From the IMG/VR virus record IMGVR_UViG_3300028045_000018, positions 1-55,616 of that record: 55,616 bases of DNA. One strand, given 5' to 3'. The notes beneath the pieces were generated by a model that saw only the letters and a list, made by a program, of their open reading frames with translations, had not been told where the DNA came from and made no database searches. Shown piece by piece: positions 18,272 through 50,245 of the stretch. This DNA comes from a virus (Duplodnaviria > Caudoviricetes). Position numbers and translations under genes: made by a program. Within the stretch, counting starts at the first letter, position 1. The number at the start of each line of letters is the position of its first letter.

Positions 18272-18505
18272 GTTAGCTGCCTCTCTAAAGGAAACTTTAG
18301 AGAATCTCGCAAGAGATTAAGTTGACCAGACCACTGACAGGAGATTAAAAGTTGTTAGTAAACGATAAGAAAGAAATTAGAAACGAAAGTATGACGCACC
18401 AGTACTTTCCTCTTTGGTTACAGATTAAACAGTTCTGTGAGGTAGGAACAGTGTTTGTAGCGTTAAACCTTTTATTATCAGGTCGAGGTGAAGGCGAATT
18501 CTGCG
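18272..18505 (+). ncRNA. omegaRNA/HEARO-like RNA of a decayed IscB element
   Basis: GTTAGCT/AGTTGAC closing stem with two tetraloop hairpins (GAAA, GCAA); TTAAACAGTTCTG...GGAACAGTG and GTCGAGG motifs typical of IscB upstream RNAs. Confidence 0.7.
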
Positions 18506-22854: not shown

Positions 22855-22863
22855 GAATTGAAA

Positions 22864-24540
22864 ATGAAAGTTTTCGTTAAAGGTAAGGGTCAGGTCAATC
22901 TTTCCAAGACTGATTTCTTGGCTCAGGGCGGCGAAGGCAAAATTTTTGTTAAGGGTAAAACTGCGTACAAGATTTACCTAGACCCTAAAAAGATGATTCC
23001 TGTCGCAAAAATTCAAGAACTTTCATCACTTTCTTTGCCAAATATTATACGTCCAGAACGTGTTATTTTAGATAACAAGGATAACCCAGTCGGTTATACG
23101 ATGCGTTATGTAAAAGATACGACTTCTCTTTGCAAAATCTTCACAAAAACGTTCAAAAGGAAGAACAACATACAACCTGGTTGCGTAGCGGATTTAGTCA
23201 AAAAACTATATGAAGGCATTCAGCATGTACATAGCAAGCAAATTCTAATCGTTGATTTAAACGAAATGAATTTCCTTCTCAATAACAAACTTGATGATAT
23301 ATTCTTTATTGATACTGATAGTTACAAAACTAAAAGTTATAATGCTACAGCCATCATGGAAAGCATTCGAGATAGACATTCGTCTTCGTTCAGTACAAAT
23401 ACGGACTGGTTCTCATTCGGAATTATCTCATTCCAAATGTTTATAGGTATACATCCATTTAAAGGGAAGCATTCTAAATTCAAAAATCTTGATGACAGGA
23501 TGATGAATAATGTTTCGGTATTGAATAAGGCTGTATCTATACCTAAACTTTGTGCTTCTTTTGACGTAATTCCTCAAACATATAGGGAATGGTATAAAGC
23601 TGTGTTTGAGGATGGGAAAAGAGTTCCTCCACCAGGTGGATTCCAAGATCTCATTATTATTCAGCCTACTATCCATACAGTTAAAGGTAGTGATAATCTC
23701 GATATTGAAGAGTTACAAAAATACGATCAAGCTGTCATCGACTGCAAATACATTAATGGTAATAGAGTTGCGATCACTAACTCTAATATCTATATCAATG
23801 ACAAGAAAAGACCGCCAATAGCGAATGTCTTTATCGGTTCTACTCCAAAGATGGGACATGTAGTTGCGGCACGTATTGAAAATGGTCTTTTAAAATTGCA
23901 TAACGTAACTATGAGCAAAGCCATTGATTGCACAATTGCTGCTGAAAAAGTCATGTCATATGACGAAAGAATATATGTAAAGAATGGTTTAGATGTATAT
24001 GAAATCAAACTAAACGAGTTAGGCAATAGAATTATTGCAACGCCTACTATCGTAGCTAATGTCATGGAGAAGGCTACGCATGTTTACGATGGAGTTATAT
24101 TGCAAGACTTATTGGGAGCATGTTATGCTTCTATGTTCCCAGAGCCAAAAACTCACGTACAGTCCCACTTGAAAGAACTTATTGGATACAAAATAGTTGA
24201 TGCTAAATATTCTAATAGAATTCTTATGATTGTAGGACAGAAAAAAGGTAAATACGATAAACTTATCTTTAGGTTTGATTCTTCGCATCAGTCTTACGAT
24301 TTGAATATAAAGAGTGATATCGTTTATTCTGGATTGAACTTCGTAGTTCTTGATAATGGAATATGCGTACATATAAATGAAGATGAAAATATAGAGTTGT
24401 TCGTTAATAAGCTTGGAGTAACTGATACTAAGGTTGTTGACGATACAAGTATTGATGGTAACATGACTCTATACAAAAATGGTAATCAAGTTCTGTTTGC
24501 CAAAGACAACGCGATTTACAAGATGTCACTTAAGAAATGA
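22864..24540 (+). CDS. Ser/Thr protein kinase with long beta-rich C-terminal region
   Basis: LAQGGEG, AYKIY, IVDLNEMNFL, FIDTDSY, TDWFSFG, HPFKG. Confidence 0.88.
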   Translation: MKVFVKGKGQVNLSKTDFLAQGGEGKIFVKGKTAYKIYLDPKKMIPVAKIQELSSLSLPNIIRPERVILDNKDNPVGYTMRYVKDTTSLCKIFTKTFKRKNNIQPGCVADLVKKLYEGIQHVHSKQILIVDLNEMNFLLNNKLDDIFFIDTDSYKTKSYNATAIMESIRDRHSSSFSTNTDWFSFGIISFQMFIGIHPFKGKHSKFKNLDDRMMNNVSVLNKAVSIPKLCASFDVIPQTYREWYKAVFEDGKRVPPPGGFQDLIIIQPTIHTVKGSDNLDIEELQKYDQAVIDCKYINGNRVAITNSNIYINDKKRPPIANVFIGSTPKMGHVVAARIENGLLKLHNVTMSKAIDCTIAAEKVMSYDERIYVKNGLDVYEIKLNELGNRIIATPTIVANVMEKATHVYDGVILQDLLGACYASMFPEPKTHVQSHLKELIGYKIVDAKYSNRILMIVGQKKGKYDKLIFRFDSSHQSYDLNIKSDIVYSGLNFVVLDNGICVHINEDENIELFVNKLGVTDTKVVDDTSIDGNMTLYKNGNQVLFAKDNAIYKMSLKK

Positions 24541-24932
24541 TTAATATATACACTGCCGGATATAATGCATGGTCGTTTTATGAATTCAAGACCAAAATCG
24601 AAGAGCTAGGGAATCCTCTTATAGTTGATGTTAGATATTCCCCTTATAGCTTTAATCCGTTTTGGACCAAAAAGAACCTGACAAAACACTTCAATAATTA
24701 TATTCATATAAAAAATCTTGGTAATGTCAATTATAAAAATGGTAAACCAATCAAGATATACAATCTTGATAAAGGTTGCAAACAGTTATTGAATAGTCTC
24801 GGCAAAGATTATGATAGTTGCTTGCTTCTATGTGCTTGTGAGGATGTCGAGGAATGCCATAGAAAAGTAATAGTAAAGAAACTGGAGACTATGACGCTTT
24901 GTGAAATTATACATCTGAAAGAGGAAGAATAA
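24537..24932 (+). CDS. DUF488-family protein
   Basis: IYTAGY...VDVR..P.S...Y.H...LG...LLCACE....CHR. Confidence 0.8.
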   Translation: MINIYTAGYNAWSFYEFKTKIEELGNPLIVDVRYSPYSFNPFWTKKNLTKHFNNYIHIKNLGNVNYKNGKPIKIYNLDKGCKQLLNSLGKDYDSCLLLCACEDVEECHRKVIVKKLETMTLCEIIHLKEEE

Positions 24933-25162: not shown

Positions 25163-25413
25163 TGGGATGGAACTACAGATTATTTAAACATACAGATCAA
25201 AGTGTTTGGTACGGGATTCACGAAGTCTTTTACAAAACCGACGAGAGTGACGAACTTGATGAAAACGAAATAAATCTTATTTCTTCTGATCCCATAGATC
25301 CTCATGGAGCGACAAAAGAAGATATAGAAGACGATCTAAACATGATGCTTGCGGCGATTGATAAACCGACATTAAATTGGAATCAAATGTTAGAAAAACT
25401 TAAAAATGGATAA
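25162..25413 (+). CDS. Phage hypothetical protein (WNYR...IHEVFY type)
   Basis: Coupled ORF, GGAGG SD. Confidence 0.65.
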   Translation: MGWNYRLFKHTDQSVWYGIHEVFYKTDESDELDENEINLISSDPIDPHGATKEDIEDDLNMMLAAIDKPTLNWNQMLEKLKNG

Positions 25414-26050
25414 ATTTCTCTACCACCATTGCACTAACCTTTCTACTATTAGATACGATAGAATTGTACCGGCAGAGCAACATACGTTGAATAACGGTCA
25501 TATTAATGAATGGCTTAGTGAAGATGATTGGGAATGGGACATAAGAGCTAATAAATGGTTAAAAAATGAAGTTGGTTTTTATCCGTTATTTATGGCTGTC
25601 GGAGATACGCTTGATGCTTTATATCCTACTGGATATCAGGACAATTGGAGAGTCACATTAAGTAGTTGGTTTGACAAAAATAACAAGAAGTGTTATACAA
25701 GAAGAAAAAAAGGAGAATTTCCGAATCAGGTTCTTTTTTCTTTTAAAAATGTTAATTGTGTTTTCATGGATTGTGATTGGTGGATCATGACAGCTTTTAA
25801 CAATGCATTAGATGATAGACTTGAGACCACAGCCCAAGATAAAAGACGGACGTTCAAATACTCTTGGAGTAGATCTAAATGGCTTAGGAGGGCAGCAAAC
25901 GACCCAGGGAGGGTTATATGCGTTGTTCCGCAGTTAGATTTGAGACAAGCTGATAGAGTTTGGGTTAGAAATCAAAAAACTAAGAAAATCTTAGAAAAAA
26001 TGGGATTTGAGAATGTTTTCTCAAAAAGAATCCCAGTTGAGAATTTTTAG
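25406..26050 (+). CDS. Hypothetical protein
   Basis: 214-aa coupled ORF. Confidence 0.7.
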   Translation: MDKFLYHHCTNLSTIRYDRIVPAEQHTLNNGHINEWLSEDDWEWDIRANKWLKNEVGFYPLFMAVGDTLDALYPTGYQDNWRVTLSSWFDKNNKKCYTRRKKGEFPNQVLFSFKNVNCVFMDCDWWIMTAFNNALDDRLETTAQDKRRTFKYSWSRSKWLRRAANDPGRVICVVPQLDLRQADRVWVRNQKTKKILEKMGFENVFSKRIPVENF

Positions 26051-26090
26051 TTTGTGTTTATATATTTTGGTATAATTTAGAAAATCTTAT

Positions 26091-26576
26091 ATGGAGAACA
26101 TTATGGAAATTACGTTAGCAAGAGCACTGAAGTACAAAAATAGATTAGTTGGAAAAATAGCTACTGTTACAGAAATCGTTAGGACGAAGAACAGCGTTAT
26201 AAAAGGGACAGAGAAAGAAGTAGATATCAGGGAATTAGTTGCTTTAAGAGCTAAATTGATTAATAATTTGATTGATCTAAAGACTGCGATCAATAAAGCT
26301 AATGGTCCTATCGTTGAGACTATATTTGCAATTTCTGAGCTTAAATCAGACATTGTTTTTTGGAATAGCGTCAACACTACTCATGGTATGGCAAGTCAAG
26401 ATAGAGCTTACTACCCAGCAACAGAACCAACTGAGTTTGAAGCTGTCTTTCGTTTTGGCGATGCCGAAGAACTGAAGACTAATACAAACAAAAAAATTGA
26501 TGCTCGACAAGAAAAAATAGATAAACATAATCATTCAACGACTATAAATGTTGAAGTGCTTGACGAAGTTTATTAA
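26091..26576 (+). CDS. DUF6847/DIP1984-like helical protein
   Basis: ITLARAL..K..L...LIDLK.AI..AN...ID..N; own class A promoter 26053-26076. Confidence 0.65.
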   Translation: MENIMEITLARALKYKNRLVGKIATVTEIVRTKNSVIKGTEKEVDIRELVALRAKLINNLIDLKTAINKANGPIVETIFAISELKSDIVFWNSVNTTHGMASQDRAYYPATEPTEFEAVFRFGDAEELKTNTNKKIDARQEKIDKHNHSTTINVEVLDEVY

Positions 26577-26584
26577 AGTTTAAC

Positions 26585-26772
26585 GTGGGTGGGAGTTCGG
26601 ATAGAACTGAACTGTGTAATTATACATTCTTTGGAATGACTCCAATTTGACCTTGATCTCGAATTCAAAACTGATGATTCAAAGGTTCAAAATTGAAGAT
26701 TTAAGTATTAAAACTTATCCTATTACATTGTTCGGAGTTGCTTCGGCTTCTATATTCGAATCTCCCATCCAC
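26585..26772 (+). ncRNA. Candidate structured RNA with internal heptamer repeats
   Basis: GTGGGTGGGAG/CTCCCATCCAC 11-bp closing stem plus nested stems; about 7 repeats RTT(C/G/T/A)AAR at 26663-26713. Confidence 0.65.
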
Positions 26773-26803
26773 TATTTTAAAAGAATACTTAATAGGAGAC
26801 GAA

Positions 26804-27229
26804 ATGAAAGAGCGTGTAGCCAAAGCTGGTGTAGCAGTTTTTATCGTAAACGAATCAAATCAAATATTGCTTGGGGTCAGAATTGCCAAACCAGGTTACG
26901 GTCATAACGAATGGCAACTTCCAGGCGGTAAAATATCACATATGGAAGACTGGGTTGACACATGCGTGAGGGAGGTTAAAGAAGAAACAGATCTTGATAT
27001 AGATGATATTCATTTTATCACATCAAGAAATGACACTTATCCTGAATTAGATATACATTTTGTTTGTTCGTTTTTTGTAGCCAGAAAATATTCTGGAGAA
27101 GCTAAAATCATGGAACCAACAAAATGTTTTGAATGGAAATGGTTTGACATAGACAACTTGCCAAAACCTATGTTTTTGTCGATACAAGAGATAGTTAGTA
27201 AAAATTACAACACGATAATTGGAGATTGA
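26804..27229 (+). CDS. NUDIX hydrolase (MutT/NUDT15-like)
   Basis: LPGGK....E....C.REVKEETDL; EP.KC..W.WF. Confidence 0.9.
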   Translation: MKERVAKAGVAVFIVNESNQILLGVRIAKPGYGHNEWQLPGGKISHMEDWVDTCVREVKEETDLDIDDIHFITSRNDTYPELDIHFVCSFFVARKYSGEAKIMEPTKCFEWKWFDIDNLPKPMFLSIQEIVSKNYNTIIGD

Positions 27230-27232
27230 AAA

Positions 27233-27664
27233 ATGATAGAAGGAACACAAAAAACGATAGAAGTAGTAAAAGAAGAAAAAGCAACAGTACCGATGAGGAA
27301 GTTGGAGGTATATCAGACAGACGATGGTCGTAGAGTAGAAGTTTTTCCTATTGTTGGGTCAGTCGAACTAGACACAGCGAACGACGAAGAGGCTGCTGGT
27401 CAAAATTTCTCTGATAAAACTATTTTTGTTGGAGTTGTACACATTCCTTCGCCTTCTGGCCCTCAAGAAATAAAATTCGAAATACCTGGTGTTGGTACTC
27501 CAGAAGCGGCTTTTGAAGAATACTACGACTTTGCTAGTAAGGCTGTAGAAGAGATCAGAAAGCGAATGGCACAAAAACAAGAAGATGAGAGCAAAAAAAT
27601 CGTAACTGCACCAGCAGGAGCCTTGGATGCACTAGAACAAGGAAAAGGAAACATAATCCTATAA
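27233..27664 (+). CDS. Hypothetical protein
   Basis: GGAG SD, 143 aa. Confidence 0.7.
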   Translation: MIEGTQKTIEVVKEEKATVPMRKLEVYQTDDGRRVEVFPIVGSVELDTANDEEAAGQNFSDKTIFVGVVHIPSPSGPQEIKFEIPGVGTPEAAFEEYYDFASKAVEEIRKRMAQKQEDESKKIVTAPAGALDALEQGKGNIIL

Positions 27665-27684
27665 CAGTATAATAGCGACAAATA

Positions 27685-28740
27685 ATGACTAAAAAAGAAA
27701 CTAAAAGAAAAATTAAAAGAAAAATTAAAAGAAAAGTTATTATTCGTAACAGTCAATCGCCTGGTGATATAGTCATGTTAACGGCTGCTGTTCGAGACTT
27801 GTATTTGTCTCATCCTGAGATAGGCATTGACCCAAGAACTTCTGCCGGTGAATTATGGGAGAATAACCCATATATTGTCAAATTGAAAGAAGGCAATAAA
27901 GATGTTGAAGACATTAAGGTAGACTATCCATTAATTCACGAAAGCAATGAAGGTCAACATCACTTTATACATGGATATCGTAAAGACTTAGAAGAGAAGT
28001 TAGGCATTAATATCAAACCAACTAAGTTTAAAGGAGATATCCATATCAGCGATGAAGAGAAAGGATGGATTTCTCAGGTCGAAGAGATGGGTATTAAAAA
28101 TGATTTTTGGATTGTCATGGCAGGTGGAAAATACGACTACACCTGTAAATTTTCAAATCCCAAAACAATTCAAAAAGTTATCGACCATTTTAAAGGTAAA
28201 ATAACTTTTGTACAGTGCGGTCAAGCAGACCACTATCATCCACAGCTTGACAATGTTATTAACTTAATAGGGAAAACAGATTTAAGACAATTTATACGTC
28301 TTATTTATCATTCTGTTGGAGTTCTTTGCCCTGTAACGTTTGCCATGCATGGTGCTGCTGCTATTGAGATGAAAAATACTCCTCCACAAAATAGACCATG
28401 TGTTGTTATTGCTGGAGGTAGAGAACCTCCTCAATGGGAAGCATATCCAAATCACAGGTTTTTAGATGTAAATGGAGCGATAGACTGTTGCGACAATGGA
28501 GGTTGTTGGAAAAGTAGATGTCAGACTGTTGGTGATGGCGATAAAAAAGATATCAAAGATTTATGTCTTTATCCGGTAGAGATTACAGACAAACTCAAAA
28601 TACCGAAGTGTATGGATATGATTAAAGACATTGATATAATAAGAGCGATATCTACATATTATAAAGGTGGAGTTTTAAAATACAATGACGATAAATCAAA
28701 CGACAAAACAATAATAAAAGTAGAAGGTGGCATATTGTGA
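27685..28740 (+). CDS. GT9 (heptosyltransferase-like) glycosyltransferase
   Basis: SPGDIVMLTAAVRDL, NNPY, NLIGKTDLRQ, MH.AAA. Confidence 0.85.
   Translation: MTKKETKRKIKRKIKRKVIIRNSQSPGDIVMLTAAVRDLYLSHPEIGIDPRTSAGELWENNPYIVKLKEGNKDVEDIKVDYPLIHESNEGQHHFIHGYRKDLEEKLGINIKPTKFKGDIHISDEEKGWISQVEEMGIKNDFWIVMAGGKYDYTCKFSNPKTIQKVIDHFKGKITFVQCGQADHYHPQLDNVINLIGKTDLRQFIRLIYHSVGVLCPVTFAMHGAAAIEMKNTPPQNRPCVVIAGGREPPQWEAYPNHRFLDVNGAIDCCDNGGCWKSRCQTVGDGDKKDIKDLCLYPVEITDKLKIPKCMDMIKDIDIIRAISTYYKGGVLKYNDDKSNDKTIIKVEGGIL
27703..27738 (+). repeat. 12-bp tandem repeat x3 encoding KRKI-KRKI-KRKV
   Basis: AAAAGAAAAATT AAAAGAAAAATT AAAAGAAAAGTT. Confidence 0.8.
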
Positions 28741-44345: not shown

Positions 44346-44610
44346 GTCAACTACCCTAAAGGAAGGGCTTGAACCGTGAGGTTCGAGAGTAATTAGTTGA
44401 TTAGTGAGCTTAATTAAGGAATTAGTTATGCAGCAGTTACAATCAAAGTTAAAGAACGCACCAAGGAATGCCTCCCTAGTTCCTTGCTCTGTAAATTCTT
44501 CATTAAACAAAGATCAAAGTCTTAGTGTGGAGAATAAAGTACTGAATTGTAACAATCACGAAGGGAATCTACCTCAACGTAAAGAGGGAAAGAACTTGAG
44601 AGTCTCTTTC
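44346..44610 (+). ncRNA. omegaRNA (HEARO-like) scaffold of IscB
   Basis: GTCAACTACCC...GGGCTTGAACC-GTGA-GGTTCGAG...TAGTTGA opening; TTAAACA motif; directly upstream of PLMP-containing ORF. Confidence 0.8.
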
Positions 44611-45813
44611 ATGGTTTACGTATTAAATTTACGAGGAGAACCTTTGATGCCATGTTCTCCGCAGAAAGCTAAGAAATTGATTAAGGAGAATTTAGCGTGT
44701 GTAGTTAGAAGAAGTCCATTTACGATTCAGTTGAAATATGCGACTGGAGAGAATAAACAGGAAGTAACATTAGGAATAGATTCTGGAGCAAAGAATATAG
44801 GTTTTAGTGCAGTTTCGAAAGAAAAAGAATTAATAAGCGGAACTGTAGTTCTTGATGATAAAATGAAATCAAGACTAGCAGATAGAAAAATGTATCGCAG
44901 AAGTAAAAGAGGCAAATTGTGGTACAGGAAACCCAGATGGAAAAATAGAGTTTCTACTAAGAAGAAAGGTTGGCTTCCACCTTCTATTTTAAGGAAATAT
45001 TTCACTCATTTAACTCTTATTAATAAAATTAAACATCTTCTTCCTATTACTAAAGTAGTAGTAGAAGTAGGAAATTTTGACATACAAAAGATTAAGAATC
45101 CTGATATTTCTGGTAAAGAGTATCAAGAAGGTGATTTATTAGGTTATAATAATGTTAAATCTTATATTTTTGCAAGAGAAAATTATATTTGTCAACTTTG
45201 TAAGAAATCAGTTATTGGAGATAAGACTAATTTACATCATATTATTCCTAAACCTGAAGGAACCGACAAAGCAGACAACTTGGCTTTATTACACAAGAAG
45301 TGCCACAAAAAACTACATGAACAAGGTTTAGAAAGTAAACTGAAGAAAAGTAAACAATATAAAGAAGCAACGTTTATGAATATTGTTAAGAATAAGTTTC
45401 AAGAAGATTTAGATTGTAAACTTGTTTTTGGTTATGAAACGTTTACTAAGAGAAATGAACTAGGAATAGGAAAATCACATATTAACGATGCTTTTGTAAT
45501 TTCAGGTGGAGAAAAACAAGAAAGAACATTACCTTTTGAAGCAACACAAAAACGTAAAAACAATAGATGTTTACAAAAAAATAGAAAAGGATTTAAACGT
45601 TCTGTTCGTAAGCAAAGATATGCTATTCAACCTAAAGACCTAGTTAAGATAGAAGGTAAGTTTTTTGAAGTCAAAGGTATATTTAGTTATGGAAAACAGA
45701 TTAGATTAGTTAATAAGGTAGGAAAAATTGTTAATAAATCAGTTAAAAAAGTGAATTGGGTTTTTCATAATAAAACGTTAATATGGAACGTAACTGTGAA
45801 TCGAAGAAAGTAA
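44611..45813 (+). mobile_element. iscB: IscB RNA-guided nuclease (IS200/IS605 OMEGA), apparently intact; no TnpA in window
   Basis: MVYVL...PLMP, LGIDSG (RuvC-I), R..RR..R bridge helix, VEVGNFD, CQLC..HHIIP..N..HKKCH (HNH), KSHINDA (RuvC-III). Confidence 0.93.
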
Positions 45814-50083: not shown

Positions 50084-50167
50084 TTTTTAATTAAGTTGTG
50101 ATATATTATATGTTATAATGCATCAGATCAATAAAATAGATATTTAAGACCGAAAGGTCTTTGTTCT

Positions 50168-50240
50168 GCGTCCGTAGTTGAGGGATTTAACGGCAAATTC
50201 TAAATTTGTGACTACGTGGGTTTGAATCCCACCGGACGCG
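50168..50240 (+). tRNA. Amber suppressor tRNA (anticodon CTA)
   Basis: GCGTCCG/CGGACGC, GTTG/TAAC D-stem, GCAAA-TTCTAAA-TTTGT with CTA at 50200-50202, T-loop TTTGAAT; class A promoter 50097-50119. Confidence 0.8.
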
Positions 50241-50245
50241 ATTCG

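Follow-up and report, generated by a model that had tools for sequence, protein, structure and literature searches.

Is the structured RNA that directly follows a small DUF6847/DIP1984-like gene in a tailed phage the partner of the protein encoded beside it? The question is raised by a Caudoviricetes record (IMG/VR record IMGVR_UViG_3300028045_000018), all 55,616 nt of which were analysed and are called the window here. In it, a gene for a helical protein of 157 residues is followed on the same strand by an RNA-like fold of 188 nt that displays a series of heptamers. An earlier examination of the letters without database searches, which we call the sequence-only reading, had proposed that the two form a ribonucleoprotein (RNP) in which an oligomeric protein binds one repeat per subunit, or else a protein-RNA toxin-antitoxin or decoy pair. 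We know of no function for the DUF6847/DIP1984 family, though it has had a crystal structure since 2009. The family is large, with members in phages, on hundreds of small Acinetobacter plasmids and on the chromosomes of diverse bacteria. Here we report that the element is a real structured non-coding RNA, of a class that Rfam lacks, and that comparison of many loci argues strongly for gene and RNA being one functional unit. A dedicated covarying RNA beside the gene almost everywhere is the first concrete handle on the function of the family.

A structured RNA in the window and its phage relatives

The RNA (26585-26772; features in Table 1) has a minimum free energy (MFE) of -60.2 kcal/mol, whereas 200 dinucleotide shuffles average -39.4 (z -5.56) and none folds as well; the minus strand of the same region folds less stably, with a z of -4.09. 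The limits of the RNA and its spacing of 8 nt from the stop codon agree with the sequence-only reading, and so do the helices it had listed, with the exception of TAGAA/TTCTA. This helix can form but competes with the register preferred by MFE and alifold (AUA/UAU with the side hairpin), in which one compensatory change, to G-C, is seen in L009.

The same RNA stands after the stop codon in 12 metagenomic homologs with 54-81% protein identity. The RNA alignment of this phage clade holds nine distinct sequences, and its alifold consensus has 53 pairs. In this alignment 96.1% of the cells are paired and 11 of the 53 pairs (19 cells) have changed on both sides, a result reached by 0 of 500 shuffles, while sliding the partners by 1-3 columns as a control leaves 34-54% paired. 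The compensatory changes are confined to two outer helices, with 7 of the 14 pairs of P2/P3 showing them among the nine sequences, and the predicted helix of the inner core is invariant. Many G-U pairs are conserved in the clade; because these would be C-A mismatches on the other strand, we read the RNA on the + strand.

The TATTTTA tract after P1 is likely to be the 3' end of the RNA or a terminator. Most relatives have, past the RNA, either a T-run or a canonical terminator hairpin separate from it, and a terminator scanner applied to the window region flagged only the small side hairpin, beyond which the 3' strand of P1 runs into TATTTTA.

The RNA belongs to no known Rfam family. A scan of 26400-26950 at E<=10 gave two chance-level rows only, and Rfam 15 had nothing at the RNA in 20 related loci, nor in eight loci of canonical DIP1984 genes (E<=0.1). 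The HEARO model (RF02033) had no match at 26585-26772, while the same scan found both HEARO copies elsewhere in the window. A hammerhead was considered and rejected (relatives do not keep the CUGAUGA at 26673, and Rfam gives no match), as was a tRNA-like T-arm for GGGAG..UUCGAAUCUCCC, against which the continuous covarying helix argues.

The RNA in distant relatives

The sequence-only reading had suggested looking for a covarying structure and repeats downstream of homologous genes, and both are present well beyond this phage. A covariance model built from the phage clade alone (R1) finds the RNA in the right place and on the right strand, at E<0.01, in L017/L018, L019, L040 (a Pacearchaeota metagenome-assembled genome, MAG) and L045 (a Eubacteriales MAG). 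Relatives with 27-40% protein identity and a same-strand downstream RNA come from phage contigs, Planctomycetota, Fimbriimonas, Verrucomicrobia and these Eubacteriales and Pacearchaeota MAGs, and the GC content of these distant loci ranges from 26 to 70%. They share one plan: a long closing helix, variable hairpins, and then a run of about eight units, [U/G][C/U/G]AA[A/G] every 7-8 nt, that ends in AA(A/G)(A/C)CUC(A/U)(A/U)C. In alifolds made separately for three bacterial clades, the closing helices contain 9, 13 and 10 compensatory pairs, and many of the distant loci, including high-GC ones, have a separate canonical terminator after the RNA.

A profile of the core trained on 12 AT-rich RNAs was on target, at E<=1.5, in 13 of the 25 loci left out of its training, and one off-target match fell in the same range. 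Three rounds of iteration brought 34 of 38 distinct loci into the alignment, a figure that is circular for the 31 training loci; the match is weak in L043/L048. An RNA-first pattern scan of viral contigs gave at least 119 stretches, and we take these to be chance matches because none of the 80 examined fits R1 at E<=0.1.

A conserved core of short repeated units

The heptamer series claimed by the sequence-only reading lies exactly at 26663-26713 (UCAAAAC, UCAAAGG, UCAAAAU, UGAAGAU, UUAAGUA, UUAAAAC). Taken alone it is weak. Tandem Repeats Finder (TRF) reported no tandem array in the RNA. A chain of five spaced BAAR motifs is reached by 1 of 5000 dinucleotide shuffles of the RNA, and it occurs in 41 of 2360 tiles of the AT-rich window; as a statistic, the fixed BAAR chain is too strict for high-GC variants and partly discriminating. 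The periodic array is nevertheless kept in 30 aligned RNAs from 26% to 70% GC, with indels the size of units, and because of this recurrence we regard it as real. MAFFT alone reproduces the alignment of the 30 cores, whose invariant columns are the AA of the units. GGA is not conserved in it, and the conserved unit is NAAR.

The indels are of whole units: L044, L024 and L045 have 7 nt more, and L020 has 39 nt less than L021. These last two loci are otherwise near-identical, and the 39-nt block, about five units of the array, makes them a natural variant in unit number.

Gene and RNA occur together

In four whole genomes of 1.6-7.5 Mb (G001-G004) the sole significant match of the core model R2 is the copy beside the gene; since these copies belong to the R2 training set, the informative part is the absence of further ones. 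A sample of 151 genomes from the order of G001 (the Gemmatales-order sample) has the gene in 22 genomes and 30 R2 matches at E<=1e-3. Eighteen of these matches, in 17 genomes, are on the strand of the gene, 100-250 nt 3' of it; 11 of the 17 genomes are outside the training set. Of the remaining five genomes with the gene, two have weak on-target matches, one has the closing helix with a diverged core, one has the gene at a contig edge, and one has a partial protein match of 39 residues. The 12 matches without a gene are 11 perfect simple heptamer tandem repeats and one genuine-looking RNA by a truncated gene.

In this last case (L189, about 1400-1640; G676:C679) the RNA copy stands beside the last few codons' worth of a DUF6847-like gene, with a serine-recombinase-like open reading frame (ORF) on the opposite strand, a layout that points to a rearrangement or an insertion within the gene. 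Genome G718 has two extra copies of the module (L200 and L201) whose closing helix is missing its 3' strand; in one of them TGA interrupts the gene, and both look like decaying duplicates. Several Planctomycetota loci (L185 at about 1522-1580, L186 at about 1533-1660, L191, L196, L188 and L190) carry perfect 7-8-nt tandem arrays right past stop codons, with units such as GTTTCAA, AGTCTCAAGTTTCAAG, AATCTTC and GATTTAA. They are false matches to the core model, and are often followed by their inverted complement, making long hairpins possible.

Elsewhere the family is sparse (5 of 301 and 4 of 301 genomes in samples of two phyla). Genome searches with PF20935, which also match Deinococcus radiodurans, are too insensitive for this subfamily and recovered two of five genomes known to carry the gene. 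The neighbours differ between loci (NUDIX, GDSL lipase, GIY-YIG, LysR, glycosyltransferase, and convergent genes on plasmids), and no third gene is conserved with the pair.

Canonical DIP1984 loci and plasmids

Loci of the more distant, canonical DIP1984 subfamily were taken from four Bacillota genomes, one Planctomycetota genome and plasmids of A. baumannii, E. faecium and M. branderi. All eight have a gene-free stretch of 300-500 nt 3' of the gene, with closing helices and a 3' motif AC(U/C/G)ACC-N-G(Y)(R)C(U) (shared form ACUACC-N-GYRCU). A short helix AGYRC/GYRCU covaries among them (AGUAC/GUACU, AGCGC/GCGCU, AGCAC/GUGCU, UGCAC/GUGCA). These pairings were read by eye; the long-range helices were missed by MAFFT and alifold on seven of the RNAs. 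In its terminal motif the canonical RNA is similar to the last part of the window-type core, where ACUUAUCC precedes the 3' strand of a helix, and because of this likeness we regard the canonical and window types as variants of one RNA, of which the window type has more repeat units. On this comparison of sequences, protein and RNA would have diverged in step between the subfamilies.

With a canonical member as query, 371 plasmid records carry the family, 342 of them from Acinetobacter and many of them small, while tblastn of protein P0014 against plasmids found nothing. The gene tables of PLSDB list no RNA genes, which makes the missing annotation of the RNA there uninformative. In two Bacillota genomes riboswitches lie a few hundred nt beyond the canonical loci, one for c-di-AMP (L056, 2288-2462) and one of the NiCo class (L057, 2509-2583); they are probably unrelated to the module.

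The protein and its predicted dimer

The name DUF6847-like, given to the gene by the sequence-only reading, has indirect support, from the homologs and the fold, while the window protein itself falls short of the curated thresholds. No Pfam family matches this protein even at E<=10, PHROG has no match, and the gathering cut-off of PF20935 is not reached, while 8 of 14 homologs match PF20935 (best E 5.2e-10). These 14, from a large protein collection, span 100-32% identity to the window protein. On NCBIfam NF038048 (DIP1984) the protein scores 19.1 bits (E 0.0012, residues 5-68 only), below the cut-off of 70 bits, and its relatives score 31-51 bits. A profile of the 14 homologs reaches 1790 representative clusters (50% identity) at E<=1e-3. 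In the ESM Atlas the protein lies among several clusters that are 79-92% viral and that adjoin bacterial 'septicolysin'/DIP1984 clusters. The window protein is therefore a distant relative of DUF6847/DIP1984, not a member by curated thresholds, and belongs to a phage-rich subfamily of the DIP1984 family.

An AlphaFold2 (AF2) model made from a 70-sequence alignment has a predicted local distance difference test score (pLDDT) of 96.9 and consists of four long helices and a small sheet. Foldseek ranks 3kdq first (probability 1.00, TM score 0.66-0.75), and VIA-align superposes 142 of the 157 residues on 3KDQ, an unannotated structure, with Z 11.9 and a root-mean-square deviation of 3.1, the next row being at Z 8.4 over 58 residues. 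By this model the DIP1984 fold extends over the whole protein. A sequence-profile search of the PDB gave a chance-level row only (E 0.54).

That the protein is oligomeric, as had been supposed, finds limited support in a predicted homodimer (ipSAE 0.70, against 0.01 for the best of three controls), with at least 98% of contacts agreeing between runs and a partner pLDDT of at least 90. The mark used for this score is reached by 20 of 30 proteins solved as one-chain pairs and by 1 of 23 solved as single chains, and because the relative 3KDQ has a solved structure the pass may partly reflect memory. The predicted interface involves helices 2 and 3 and the sheet region and includes the invariant N30, K60, E79 and G95; the conserved helix ALKxKNR and the C-terminal Q136/D140/N143 are exposed. 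An idea that ARQEKIDKH could be a HEPN Rx6H motif was rejected, as its R is not conserved, and PADLOC gave just weak coiled-coil matches, for relatives of the window protein.

Does the protein bind the RNA?

The simplest arrangement consistent with these results would be a self-contained module, in which promoter, gene, RNA and T-tract are transcribed together and helices P1-P3 of the RNA close a core of about eight units, with their invariant AA every 7-8 nt. The protein, probably a symmetric dimer, would bind this downstream RNA and form an RNP, with the basic N-terminal helix ALKxKNR and a conserved pole carrying the C-terminal Q..D..N as the likely contacting surface and the repeated NAAR units as recognition sites. 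Because no third partner is conserved and protein and RNA appear to diverge in step, a direct physical partnership is the most economical explanation, and we judge the case for an RNP of the predicted dimer and its RNA to be evenly balanced. Tentatively, the loci might represent an undescribed and widespread class of RNP, with DIP1984-fold dimers on about eight NAAR units of a 190-260-nt RNA. Such a class, spread over marine phages, small plasmids and chromosomes of several phyla, would have a new activity, perhaps that of an RNA-gated effector or of an assembly scaffolded by RNA, and DUF6847 would have its first function.

Several observations weigh against this picture. Neither Foldseek nor VIA-align matches the protein to a known RNA-binding fold, generic helical hairpins being all that ranks below 3KDQ, and the family is near neutral, with a median isoelectric point (pI) of 6.57 and 19% of members above 8. 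Within the window alone the periodicity is mildly unusual. The units may not be free single-stranded sites, as some of them can pair with a complementary segment on the 5' side, and this segment varies in sequence along with the units. For the Gemmata-type array this pairing is GGGGAYUCCG/CGGAARCCUC, with one covarying pair, and for L045 it is UAACGAU/AUCGUUA; helix 4 of the phage clade, which is inside the core, shows no covariation. An extra ORF stands between gene and RNA in L017/L018, and the core profile does not detect L023, L041 and L046. Several Gemmata-type loci (L027, L199, L203) have near-perfect palindromes of 75-130 nt between the stop codon and the RNA, which is itself intact. 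Because part of the array can pair with a 5' segment that changes in concert with it, we give less weight to the binding of one unit per protein subunit, which we consider doubtful.

The RNA could instead act without binding the neighbouring protein, as a small RNA derived from the 3' untranslated region, a sponge for a host factor, a self-assembling RNA, or a cis element for the stability or translation of the DUF6847 mRNA. A closing helix and T-run at the end of the transcript would protect the mRNA, the conserved AA that look unpaired could be tertiary contacts or sites for host proteins, and the absence of overall positive charge on the protein would fit. However, 190-260 nt with a core kept between 26% and 70% GC is more than a stabiliser or terminator needs, a host-factor sponge would not be expected to remain tied to a single gene family in phages, plasmids, bacteria and an archaeal MAG, and the type of RNA changes along with the protein subfamily. 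We therefore consider a protein-independent role unlikely.

A type III-like toxin-antitoxin system, serving addiction or defence, would have a free protein that is harmful and a co-encoded RNA that neutralises it, so that loss or decay of the RNA, through plasmid loss or phage attack, releases the protein. The two-part unit of a protein and a repeat-bearing RNA without another conserved partner resembles such a system, as do the patchy, mobile-gene-like distribution in the two phylum samples, the presence on plasmids, above all those of Acinetobacter, the several protein clusters that are mostly viral, and the RNA copy by a truncated gene and a recombinase-like ORF. On the other hand, the protein has no similarity to ToxN, CptN, TenpN, AbiF or HEPN in Pfam, PHROG and PADLOC and no conserved catalytic motif, and the RNA lies 3' of the gene in one compact fold, with units of 7-8 nt rather than about 35 and no processed array. 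Gene-positive genomes of the Gemmatales-order sample have one, well-conserved copy (mostly at E about 1e-45), which looks more like a cellular function. We hold this explanation to be improbable. Were it true, RNA-controlled proteins would gain a new architecture; otherwise the module would add a new RNP to those of bacteria and phages.

The last two explanations have very little probability. A leader or riboswitch of the downstream gene, which in the window encodes a NUDIX hydrolase, would accord with the short distance to that gene and its place in most phage-clade loci, but the downstream gene is another one in L016, L019, L022, L026 and all bacterial loci and is convergent on three plasmids, for which reasons the RNA is not its leader; moreover, the RNA ends in a T-run or terminator and matches no riboswitch family. 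A DNA-level element (miniature inverted-repeat transposable element-like, an attachment site or iterons), or a chance palindrome with an A-rich stretch, would account for an 11-19-bp inverted repeat around about 150 nt and for short units that could be iterons, but the compensatory and G-U changes preserve the pairing on the + strand and not on the other, the z of the fold differs between strands, and there is one copy per genome, beside the same gene, with no other in the window, so that a single-copy, strand-specific and covarying element is not such a repeat.

The module and its surroundings

Table 1. Features of the gene-RNA module and the HEARO RNAs of the window
Feature	Position	Strand	Basis
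Putative promoter-like extended -10 element (TGGTATAAT)	26068-26076	+	Read from sequence
Shine-Dalgarno GGAG	26093-26096	+	6 nt 5' of ATG at 26103; conserved in phage clade
Gene of 157-aa DUF6847/DIP1984-like helical protein	26103-26576 (including stop)	+	ORF; stop TAA 26574-26576
Structured non-coding RNA, 188 nt	26585-26772	+	Starts 8 nt after stop TAA; MFE fold and covariation
P1 5' strand, GUGGGUGGGAGUUCGGAUA / UAUUCGAAUCUCCCAUCCAC helix, 19 bp	26585-26603 (with 26753-26772)	+	MFE; 4 pairs compensatory
P2/P3 5' strand, CUGAAC..GUGUAAU / AUUACA..GUUCGG, 13 bp	26607-26620 (with 26722-26735)	+	MFE
Small hairpin CAUUC-UUUG-GAAUG	26625-26638	+	MFE; variable or absent in L015, L016; no covariation
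Conserved core: UUGACCUUGAUCUCG segment, about 7-8 units of 7-8 nt (U[C/G/U]AA[A/G]NN), ending AAAACUUAUCC	26643-26723	+	nhmmer profile and alignment
P3/P2 3' strand	26722-26735	+	MFE and covariation
Side hairpin AG-UU-GC-UUCG-GC-UU-CU	26736-26751	+	In 8 of 9 phage-clade sequences; missing in L007
P1 3' strand	26753-26772	+	MFE and covariation
T-rich tract TATTTTA directly past P1, likely 3' end	26773-26779	+	Read from sequence
HEARO RNAs (RF02033)	18272-18498 and 44346-44572	+	Full-length, 102 and 108 bits against a gathering score of 83

The ORF opens at 26091, and the start was placed downstream of this from homologs beginning MEITLARAL. A promoter belonging to the unit itself had been proposed. 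The elements on which it would depend are conserved, with TGnTATAAT, exact or with one mismatch, at a fixed distance from the start codon in nine phage-clade loci, and GGAG likewise; since a generic scan of the region showed no enrichment for promoters, we speak of a putative promoter only.

The window has a GC content of about 34%, an estimated completeness of 27% for a virus record of 55.6 kb, and nearly all of its genes on the + strand. The 20 runs that contain it are all seawater or marine DNA contig sets, and none of those listed for 25900-27000 is an RNA data set. A blastn search of phage GenBank records with 25400-27700 gave no match, and a search of viral contigs by protein patterns gave no relative among 9 and 35 pattern matches. 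Upstream of the module, 22858-24540 (+) encodes a protein of 560 residues with a Ser/Thr protein kinase domain (PF00069, E 5.6e-12), directly followed by the gene of a DUF488 protein (24537-24932, +). Downstream, the NUDIX hydrolase gene starts at 26804, 31 nt past the end of the RNA, and NUDIX is next in most phage-clade loci.

ARAGORN finds 14 tRNA genes, and an Rfam scan of the whole window at the gathering score gives the two HEARO and 11 tRNA matches, all away from the RNA. One tRNA with a CUA anticodon (50167-50241, +; ARAGORN label Pyl) could be an amber suppressor, which hints at read-through or recoding of TAG in part of the phage. The second HEARO lies just past a tRNA-Tyr and is followed by an ORF from near 44628 (MPCSPQKAKKL...) that is possibly IscB-like. 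In the related phage contig L019 the DUF6847-like gene is preceded, at a distance of about 1.8 kb, by a GOLLD RNA (721-1190, +; 158 bits) with tRNAs inside it and next to it; large non-coding RNAs are plentiful in these phages.

Comparison with known systems

The closest known family is DIP1984/DUF6847 itself (PF20935, NF038048; 3KDQ from Corynebacterium diphtheriae; often annotated 'septicolysin'), with which the window protein shares the fold, the length and the pattern N..K..E..G..Q..D..N. In the accessible part of one report on OXA-24/40 plasmids, DIP1984 is an annotation (PMC10889530). A literature search covering partial texts and few subscription journals found no mention of DUF6847 and, for DIP1984, annotation use only. 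In texts of the same partial kind, 'septicolysin' is mostly a plasmid annotation and does not stand alongside a small RNA, and a search for 3KDQ gave unrelated mentions only. We have found no published description of the gene-RNA module and no Rfam class for it.

Type III toxin-antitoxin systems (ToxIN, CptIN, TenpIN), as far as the accessible portions of the reports describe them, are RNPs of a protein and repeat units (PMC8860590, PMC13682666, PMC12283969). Like the module described here, they couple a gene to a non-coding RNA with repeats, are small and mobile, and occur in phages and on plasmids. The window protein, however, is a DIP1984 helical bundle and not an endoribonuclease of the ToxN/CptN/TenpN kind, and where theirs are tandem repeats of about 34-37 nt, upstream of the gene and cut to monomers, here the units lie downstream in a closed fold. 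The module is thus not a member of type III, and it may work similarly.

In the bacterial Rsr (Ro60)/Y RNA system, the bound RNA comes after the protein gene on the same strand and is closed by a long end-to-end stem. The order of gene and RNA and the long closing stem are alike in the window, although here there is no TROVE/Ro60 protein and no Rfam match to Y RNA, and the core motif is another one. CsrB/RsmZ, with GGA motifs, and the trp leader bound by TRAP, with (G/U)AG repeats, are RNAs that display repeats for protein binding, and the regularly spaced short motif here could likewise bind one subunit per unit. Unlike them, the window RNA has NAAR and no GGA or UAG series and is fixed beside its putative partner, which, in contrast to the TRAP ring, is a four-helix protein and a predicted dimer.

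HEARO, the omega RNA of IscB, is similar in being a structured RNA of about 200 nt that travels with one mobile protein gene, but it lies upstream of its ORF, whereas the RNA described here is downstream and its neighbour is not a nuclease. HEARO, too, was at first an orphan motif linked to a gene, and only later was it identified as the IscB guide RNA.

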